Shown: in pieces, positions 1,815 through 2,017 of the stretch
Layout of the letters: each line of letters opens with the position of its first letter
How positions within the stretch are numbered: position 1 is the first letter of the stretch
The notes under the pieces: model-generated
Told to the model about the DNA's origin: nothing
Database searches by the model: none
The model's input: the letters and a program-made list of their open reading frames with translations, nothing else
From: a virus
Taxonomy: Duplodnaviria > Heunggongvirae > Uroviricota > Caudoviricetes
Virus record (IMG/VR): IMGVR_UViG_2718218139_000003
Reading direction: 5' to 3' (one strand)
Length of the DNA stretch: 37,100 nt
Translations under genes and position numbers: made by a program

Positions 1815-1912
1815 TACGTATCCTTATACCTGAAATCTTCGCAAGTATGCCTGGCCGCGAGATTATGGCACACTTGTCCGGTTAACTCTCGTCTCATACA
1901 GGTAACACAAAC

Positions 1913-1935
1913 GTGAAAATCCTTGTTGATGAAAA
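1913..1935 (+). pseudogene. pdxB: pdxB 5' fragment: GTG start plus 7 codons (MKILVDE), then the sequence diverges into AT-rich foreign DNA
   Basis: gtgaaaatccttgttgatgaaaa matches the start of E. coli pdxB as I recall it; reading frame hits a stop within 8 codons. Confidence 0.5.
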
Positions 1936-2017
1936 AAACAAAGATTTAATTTATTGATATAAAAGGATTTGTATCAGCGTATGTCCACGCAGTGACCACA
2001 TTTTCGAGAGGTAGAGT

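Follow-up and report, generated by a model that had tools for sequence, protein, structure and literature searches.

At the left end of the analysed DNA (37,100 bp in full, referred to here as the window), the host gene pdxB starts and then runs into foreign sequence, raising the question of what interrupted the gene and whether its function was kept. The first gene of the window is yfcJ (1-822); next come flk (minus strand, 819-1814) and, ahead of pdxB, a short intergenic stretch. The pdxB start codon is the GTG at 1913, and the host letters read GTG AAA ATC CTT GTT GAT GAA AA, with the last base at 1935, where the gene is interrupted after 7 codons and 2 bases. In the leftover frame (1913-1957), these 7 host codons and 2 bases are joined to 7 phage codons and a stop, giving the product VKILVDEKNKDLIY. 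On the reading argued for below, the left junction is composed of the following elements:

819 to 1814, minus strand: flk, the host gene to the left of the junction (host arm B), taken from the list of open reading frames and the annotation of matching E. coli records
1815 to 1912, plus strand: the flk-pdxB intergenic region, identical to that of an unoccupied locus (L012), with the native pdxB upstream signals now severed from their gene
1913 to 1957, plus strand: the leftover pdxB start, from its translation, with host identity ending at 1935
1916 to 1935, plus strand: the attL copy of a 20-bp core, AAAATCCTTGTTGATGAAAA, with strand exchange somewhere within it
1936 to 2017, plus strand: the AT-rich P′ arm, which is contiguous with the core and the P arm in the free phage Chuche

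Judged by its position, the intergenic region (1815-1912) would hold the native pdxB promoter; a consensus scan of this region returned no sigma-70 match.

Comparison with other genomes placed the boundary exactly. When window 1600-2300 was searched by megablast against complete E. coli genomes, 5425 of the 5426 matched, and the typical match stopped at query base 336 (window 1935), in a place annotated as flk and pdxB. Only 61 of the 5426 genomes extend past this base into a methylase gene. Alignment with an uninterrupted pdxB locus, that of E. coli 90-9281 (L012), gave a match up to 1935, after which the unoccupied locus continues as normal pdxB, tatgccttatgcc... The G+C content falls from 0.41 (1800-1935) to 0.22 (1936-1981), compared to 0.53 for the entire window. 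An initial annotation of this DNA had proposed that pdxB is cut after 7 codons where foreign DNA begins, and that the sequence then switches to AT-rich DNA leading into a methylase. Both proposals were borne out, as identity to thousands of E. coli genomes ends at precisely 1935 and phage sequence with 22% G+C follows directly.

The same annotation regarded the junction as a possible prophage attachment site, and the comparison of four att configurations agrees with this view. The core AAAATCCTTGTTGATGAAAA is identical over all 20 bp in attL (the window), in attB (L012), in attR (L001-L009 and L011), and in attP (Chuche, L013). It occurs once in the window, with 0 copies expected by chance even when 3 mismatches are allowed, and it includes the 17-bp att sequence published for phage PhiSM, ATCCTTGTTGATGAAAA (PMC6456863). 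Around this core, attB consists of host-left, core, and host-right sequence; attL of host-left, core, and P′ arm; attR of P arm, core, and host-right; and attP in the free phage Chuche of P arm, core, and P′ arm. The flanks are thus exchanged as site-specific recombination predicts, which supports their assignment as attL, attR, attB, and attP. An attP of 340 bp was rebuilt by joining the 182 bp that follow the integrase gene (int), the core, and window 1936-2075. Escherichia phage Chuche contains this rebuilt attP in one piece, flanked by int and the methylase gene, at 96.8% identity and 100% coverage; in P88_4B11, it is matched over 81% of its length. The P arm of PhiSM is 100% identical to the first 193 bp of the rebuilt attP. 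Two core variants that differ by one base each were seen, in the attP of P88_4B11 (L014, 2683-2702; AAAATCCTTGTTGAGGAAAA) and in the attR of locus L010 (11188-11207; AAGATCCTTGTTGATGAAAA). Such single-base variants could help to locate the strand-exchange overlap inside the 20 bp.

The right junction lies outside the window, and was read from contigs that are identical to it over the parts compared, namely 3.8 kb at its left end and 11 kb at its right end. The integrase gene at the far end of the window (36096-37100, plus strand) points outward, as had been noted at the outset, and its stop codon ends on the final base. An exact look-up of the integrase protein returned ten places, each with a gene for a PdxB of 385 aa downstream of int. 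Two of these loci (L002 and L006) show zero mismatches to the last 11,005 bp of the window, and two others, found through the short yfcJ product (L015 and L016), show zero mismatches to its first 3,822 bp. Contig QQVX01000004.1 contains both window ends, 37,101 bp apart, for a window of 37,100 bp. The contigs matching the window ends are accordingly taken to be the genome from which the window comes, or a clone of that genome. Past the int stop, these loci continue with 158 bp of phage DNA, ending in ...taataaAGGAGccttagaTTG TCA GAG ACT GAA AAA GGG TTA. This final segment has AAGGAG as its Shine-Dalgarno sequence, TTG as its start, and 7 codons of phage origin (SETEKGL), and leads through the core into the remainder of pdxB in frame, as AAA ATC CTT GTT GAT GAA AAT ATG CCT... 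The rebuilt gene starts about 158-159 bp after int and encodes 385 aa with the N-terminus (M)SETEKGLKILVDEN; only 2 residues differ from native PdxB after the junction, and all three PdxB Pfam domains are retained. AAGGAG, the 7-nt spacer, the TTG, and the 7 in-frame codons are unchanged in 11 of 11 prophage loci and in both phage genomes examined. In the free phage Chuche (L013, 2660-2725), the repair segment opens a 21-codon frame, LSETEKGLKILVDEKNDDLIC, that spans the core and ends in a stop; it is conserved and has no evident phage function.

The initial annotation had placed the remainder of pdxB, restored by a phage-supplied start, beyond position 37100, together with a repeat of the junction core. 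All of these are present in the contigs that match the window ends: the Shine-Dalgarno sequence and TTG, the 385-aa pdxB, and 20 identical core bases at the other prophage end. Its description of 1936-37100 as one prophage needs to be amended in two respects. The interval is indeed prophage; however, the element does not end at 37100 but continues about 182 bp further, and the copy is not intact, being defective and carrying two IS elements. In one line:

1936 to 37100, no strand assigned: prophage body, reaching the attR core about 182 bp past the window, about 35,347 bp in total including 2,528 bp of IS sequence

That the junction is instead the scar of an IS-mediated or other illegitimate rearrangement, with pdxB simply broken, might be suggested by the two IS copies within the foreign DNA, one of them associated with a deletion, and by the partial deletion of neighbouring yfcJ. 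The nearest IS end, however, lies at 3487, 1.5 kb from the junction, so that the junction coincides with neither an IS end nor a scar; it falls at a 20-bp sequence of which the opposite prophage end has a second copy, and the matching attP is present in free phages. The same junction recurs in 61 to 302 independent complete genomes, and pdxB is complete past int. A scar is therefore exceedingly improbable. Window 1916-2017 is, with high confidence, the attL of a PhiSM/P88-like prophage of the P2 family inserted in pdxB, the gene being repaired by a phage TTG start at attR.

On this reading, the tyrosine integrase recombined the 20-bp attP core with the identical sequence at pdxB codons 2-8. 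Left behind at attL are the upstream region of native pdxB together with its start codon and 7 codons, and the stranded start now reads into a dead-end frame of 14 codons, after which comes a terminator-like hairpin. At attR, about 160-200 bp past the window, the P arm supplies the Shine-Dalgarno sequence, the TTG, and 7 extra codons (SETEKGL), and the TTG frame runs through the core into pdxB; the cell would thereby make the 385-aa PdxB and keep vitamin-B6 synthesis. For PhiSM, both the integration at the pdxB site and the prototrophy of lysogens were shown experimentally (PMC6456863).

How often the site is occupied was determined with a 471-bp attR probe covering the int end, the P arm, the core, and pdxB, with matches counted at a coverage of at least 80%. 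The attR junction was found in 302 of 5426 complete E. coli genomes (5.6%, about 1 in 18), and the remaining genomes match the probe from the first core base onward. That only 61 genomes share the left junction up to the methylase fits variable cargo beside the P′ arm, as in P88_4B11.

It could also be argued that the prophage is real but the TTG goes unused, with pdxB silent or started elsewhere and the cell coping, e.g., by salvage or a bypass. TTG is a weak start, and a scan revealed no promoter-like site upstream of it. Against this, a near-consensus AAGGAG stands 7 nt ahead of the TTG, the 24-nt extension is in frame and unchanged in the 11 prophage loci and both phage genomes, and the phages retain the segment without evident phage function, since in the free phage it encodes no more than a 21-codon frame. 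K-12 lysogens of PhiSM grow on minimal medium, whereas pdxB mutants are auxotrophs (PMC6456863), and an occupancy of 5.6% argues against a costly knockout. An idle TTG is accordingly very unlikely, and, on sequence grounds, the TTG is probably the start that is actually used.

The pdxB site, the truncation, the repair by TTG, and the phenotype are already known, having been published in 2019 for PhiSM, whose Int is 98.5% identical. Magaziner et al. 2019 (J Bacteriol 201:e00638-18, PMC6456863) showed by experiment that PhiSM inserts into E. coli K-12 pdxB at ATCCTTGTTGATGAAAA. The authors pointed out the TTG start and the AAGGAG of the PhiSM-occupied pdxB, and reported that MG1655(PhiSM) grows on minimal medium, pdxB mutants being described as auxotrophs (PMC6456863). 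In Citrobacter rodentium itself, PhiSM resides in a traF-like gene, not in pdxB (PMC6456863). The present element and C. rodentium phage PhiSM (Shae_phiSM, OR565851) share the same attB, the P arm, and the AAGGAG/TTG replacement start. They differ in the extent of shared identity, reported as 17 bp for PhiSM compared to 20 bp here, and in the cargo beside the P′ arm; in the window, the host start codon is GTG and the copy is inactivated by IS elements.

The integration module of the window includes, besides the P′ arm, the following:

1982 to 1989 and 1993 to 2000, minus strand: putative P′ arm-type Int sites, CGTGGACA and TGTGGTCA, 11 bp apart
2018 to 2039, facing the plus strand: intrinsic-terminator-like hairpin of 9 pairs, 6 of them G-C, followed by TGTCTT, and conserved in the attP of Chuche
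35276 to 35563, minus strand: cox-type excisionase/repressor gene (PF10743 Phage_Cox, E=1.2e-22)
35679 to 35999, plus strand: helix-turn-helix gene in the position of the immunity repressor, upstream of int and on the same strand (HTH Pfam matches)
36096 to 37100, plus strand: tyrosine integrase, reading toward attR and pdxB (PF24624 Int_N, E=1.6e-22; PF00589 Phage_integrase, E=1.1e-22)
37073 to 37091, minus strand: putative P-arm arm-type Int sites, CGTGGACA twice (37073-37080 and 37084-37091), 11 bp apart, inside the 3′ end of int

The 8-bp direct repeats are paired on both arms, all on the minus strand, and match by sequence the consensus tgTGGaCa, which is that of the arm sites of P2-like phages (PMC3448106). 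The 17-nt arm motif occurs in 2 copies in the window, compared to 0.02 expected. Gene order points to a repressor role for the helix-turn-helix gene (35679-35999), and, from its sequence features, the anatomy is that of a standard P2-type integration module. A strict search between int and the core in L006 gave no exact IHF consensus, WATCAANNNNTTR. Cox sites in the P arm were considered as well; by-eye comparison with the P2 cox-box consensus TTAAAG/CNCA (PMC3936717) gave only a partial match, TTAAAGGGT, and none is claimed. The hairpin would have different roles in the two states: in the free phage, it would end int transcripts, and in the prophage, it would end transcripts from the stranded pdxB upstream region, blocking them before their antisense entry into the methylase gene.

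How the rebuilt pdxB is transcribed is a separate matter. The -35 and -10 boxes proposed as a weak promoter in PMC6456863 are not endorsed here, as the sigma-70 scan was empty upstream of the phage TTG, its single plus-strand match beginning at the TTG itself. The scan for terminators returned none between int and pdxB, and the sole terminator-like hairpin of attP ends up at the opposite end of the prophage after integration. Taken together, the empty promoter scan, the open path after int, and the placement of the hairpin make read-through a reasonable alternative to the published weak promoter. The specific proposal, that pdxB in lysogens lacks a promoter of its own and is transcribed by read-through of the lysogenic repressor-int transcript, is nevertheless put forward tentatively, and is on balance unlikely. 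If true, vitamin-B6 synthesis would be tied to the lysogenic promoter and native growth-rate control would be lost, and pdxB expression would drop when Cox shuts the lysogenic promoter on induction. The host would then depend on, or be regulated by, its prophage, and this state would last even in a dead one.

The identity of the element was established from its integrase and its gene set. The Int protein is 99.7% identical to that of P88_4B11, 98.5% to that of PhiSM (Shae_phiSM), and 97.6% to that of Chuche, with the next best match at 56% and P2 Int at 53%; compared with other P2-like integrases, P2 included, identity reaches 53-56% only. The gene set is of the P2 type, with P2-family capsid, scaffold, terminase, portal, baseplate, tail tube, tape measure, gene A, cox, and int, and E. 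coli ECL27977 (L001) carries, in the same site, a related prophage with which the present one is collinear. By these sequence comparisons, the element is a PhiSM/P88-like prophage of the P2 family and a relative of the genus Xuanwuvirus. An element of another kind that borrows a phage integrase, such as a P4-like satellite or a genomic island, would account for the cargo that is not phage-like (the methylase, hok, and ParM-type partition genes) and for a copy that is not a working phage; the full P2-type module set, and the collinearity with intact relatives and isolated phages, leave this idea with almost no probability.

The P2-family prophage can be placed more closely among its relatives. 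P88 and P88_4B11 (Xuanwuvirus, Peduoviridae), Chuche, and PhiR44_2 share with it an Int of 97.6-99.7% identity, the same cox-repressor-int layout, and an attP with the same P arm, core, and arm-site repeats. P88_4B11 differs by one core mismatch (GAGG for GATG) and by other genes past the P′ arm; the genomes of all these relatives are those of free, viable phages, whereas the window holds a defective prophage. P2 itself has the same kind of heterobivalent tyrosine integrase with an N-terminal arm-binding domain, a Cox-type excisionase, an int gene that adjoins and faces attP, and paired direct repeats fitting tgTGGaCa on both arms (PMC3448106). P2 sites lie mostly between genes, and those of P2, WPhi, and PhiD145 are given as MG1655 positions (PMC3448106), whereas the pdxB site is within coding sequence and requires a gene-repair segment. 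P2 differs further in its Int (53% identical), its core, and its host target. Going by an assumed map position of pdxB, none of the P2, WPhi, and PhiD145 sites is presumably the pdxB site.

Prophages that rebuild gene ends, as at the 3′ ends of tRNA genes and ssrA (e.g., PhiNP at ssrA, PMC6456863), are comparable in that a flank of attP duplicates or replaces the severed part of the gene and function is kept. Here, in contrast, it is a protein-coding gene that has its 5′ end exchanged, together with the translation start; the product is altered by 7 additional residues and by conversion of the initiator codon to Leu, and the gene is severed from its own promoter. The locus illustrates how a phage can insert into an essential-pathway gene, at its 5′ end, and bring its own repair piece; it is nothing new in kind.

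The prophage copy carries two identical 1264-bp elements of the IS3 family, inverted relative to each other, with ORFs of 100 aa and 272 aa:

3487 to 4750, minus strand: IS3-family IS, copy 1, 1264 bp, with no target duplication, defined by blast against L001, by its ends and flanks, and by its transposase domains
28269 to 29532, plus strand: identical IS, copy 2, in replication gene A, with a 3-bp GTG duplication

The element may be IS600, a guess from its length and the sizes of its two ORFs. Copy 1 stands where the relative L001 has 3.65 kb, comprising ogr, a PIN-domain gene, gene D, and the 5′ part of the tail-sheath gene, and of the sheath the C-terminus alone is left (4751-5212). The gene A product, interrupted by copy 2, is 720 aa here compared to 940 aa in relatives. 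An inversion of the DNA between the two inverted copies was considered and ruled out, the prophage being collinear with L001. With gene A disrupted, and ogr, gene D, and the 5′ sheath removed, the copy can, as read from its gene content, no longer make phage, being unable to replicate as a phage or to build tails. By the same reading, int, cox, and both att sites appear intact, and excision of the damaged prophage may still be possible.

Relative to the PhiSM work, the additions made here are the extent of the core (20 bp, not 17 bp), the map of arm sites, the placement of the terminator, the 5.6% occupancy, and the IS-damaged state. The analysis also gives attB, attP, attL, and attR as a fully resolved set for a site that prophages commonly occupy in E. 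coli. In annotation, an occupied site can be recognised by a PdxB of 385 aa beginning MSETEKGL, with the 14-codon remnant adjoining flk.

Several cargo genes lie within the prophage, the first of them beside attL:

2044 to 2835, minus strand: N6/N4 DNA methyltransferase, the first prophage gene, identified by PF01555 and the annotation of identical loci, with a com-like gene and hok upstream

In this region (2044-3367, minus strand), a com-like zinc-ribbon gene overlaps the methyltransferase start and is followed by a hok/gef toxin gene. In phage Mu, Com controls mom translation, and the pairing of com and methylase here recalls that control. On the same strand, a ParM/StbA-type actin-like segregation gene occupies 26207-27482, and related loci annotate a Plasmid_stab_B partner alongside. 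P2-like phages that integrate do not usually carry a ParM-type gene, and its presence hints that the prophage may have a plasmid-like phase or a role in stability. At 9620-13190, the tail-fibre region and the cargo slot next to it do not match L001, and the G+C content falls to 0.38 at 9500-10500. An ORF within it (9737-10342, plus strand) gave only sub-threshold matches to hexapeptide-repeat transferases, and may be a moron of the acetyltransferase type.

In the host flank, yfcJ (1-822, with the break near 664-665) is missing 357 bp in frame compared to E. coli ECL27977, and its product is 273 aa instead of 392 aa; the shortened MFS transporter is probably non-functional. The short allele recurs in 27 blocks of the protein collection and is suggestive of a lineage marker.
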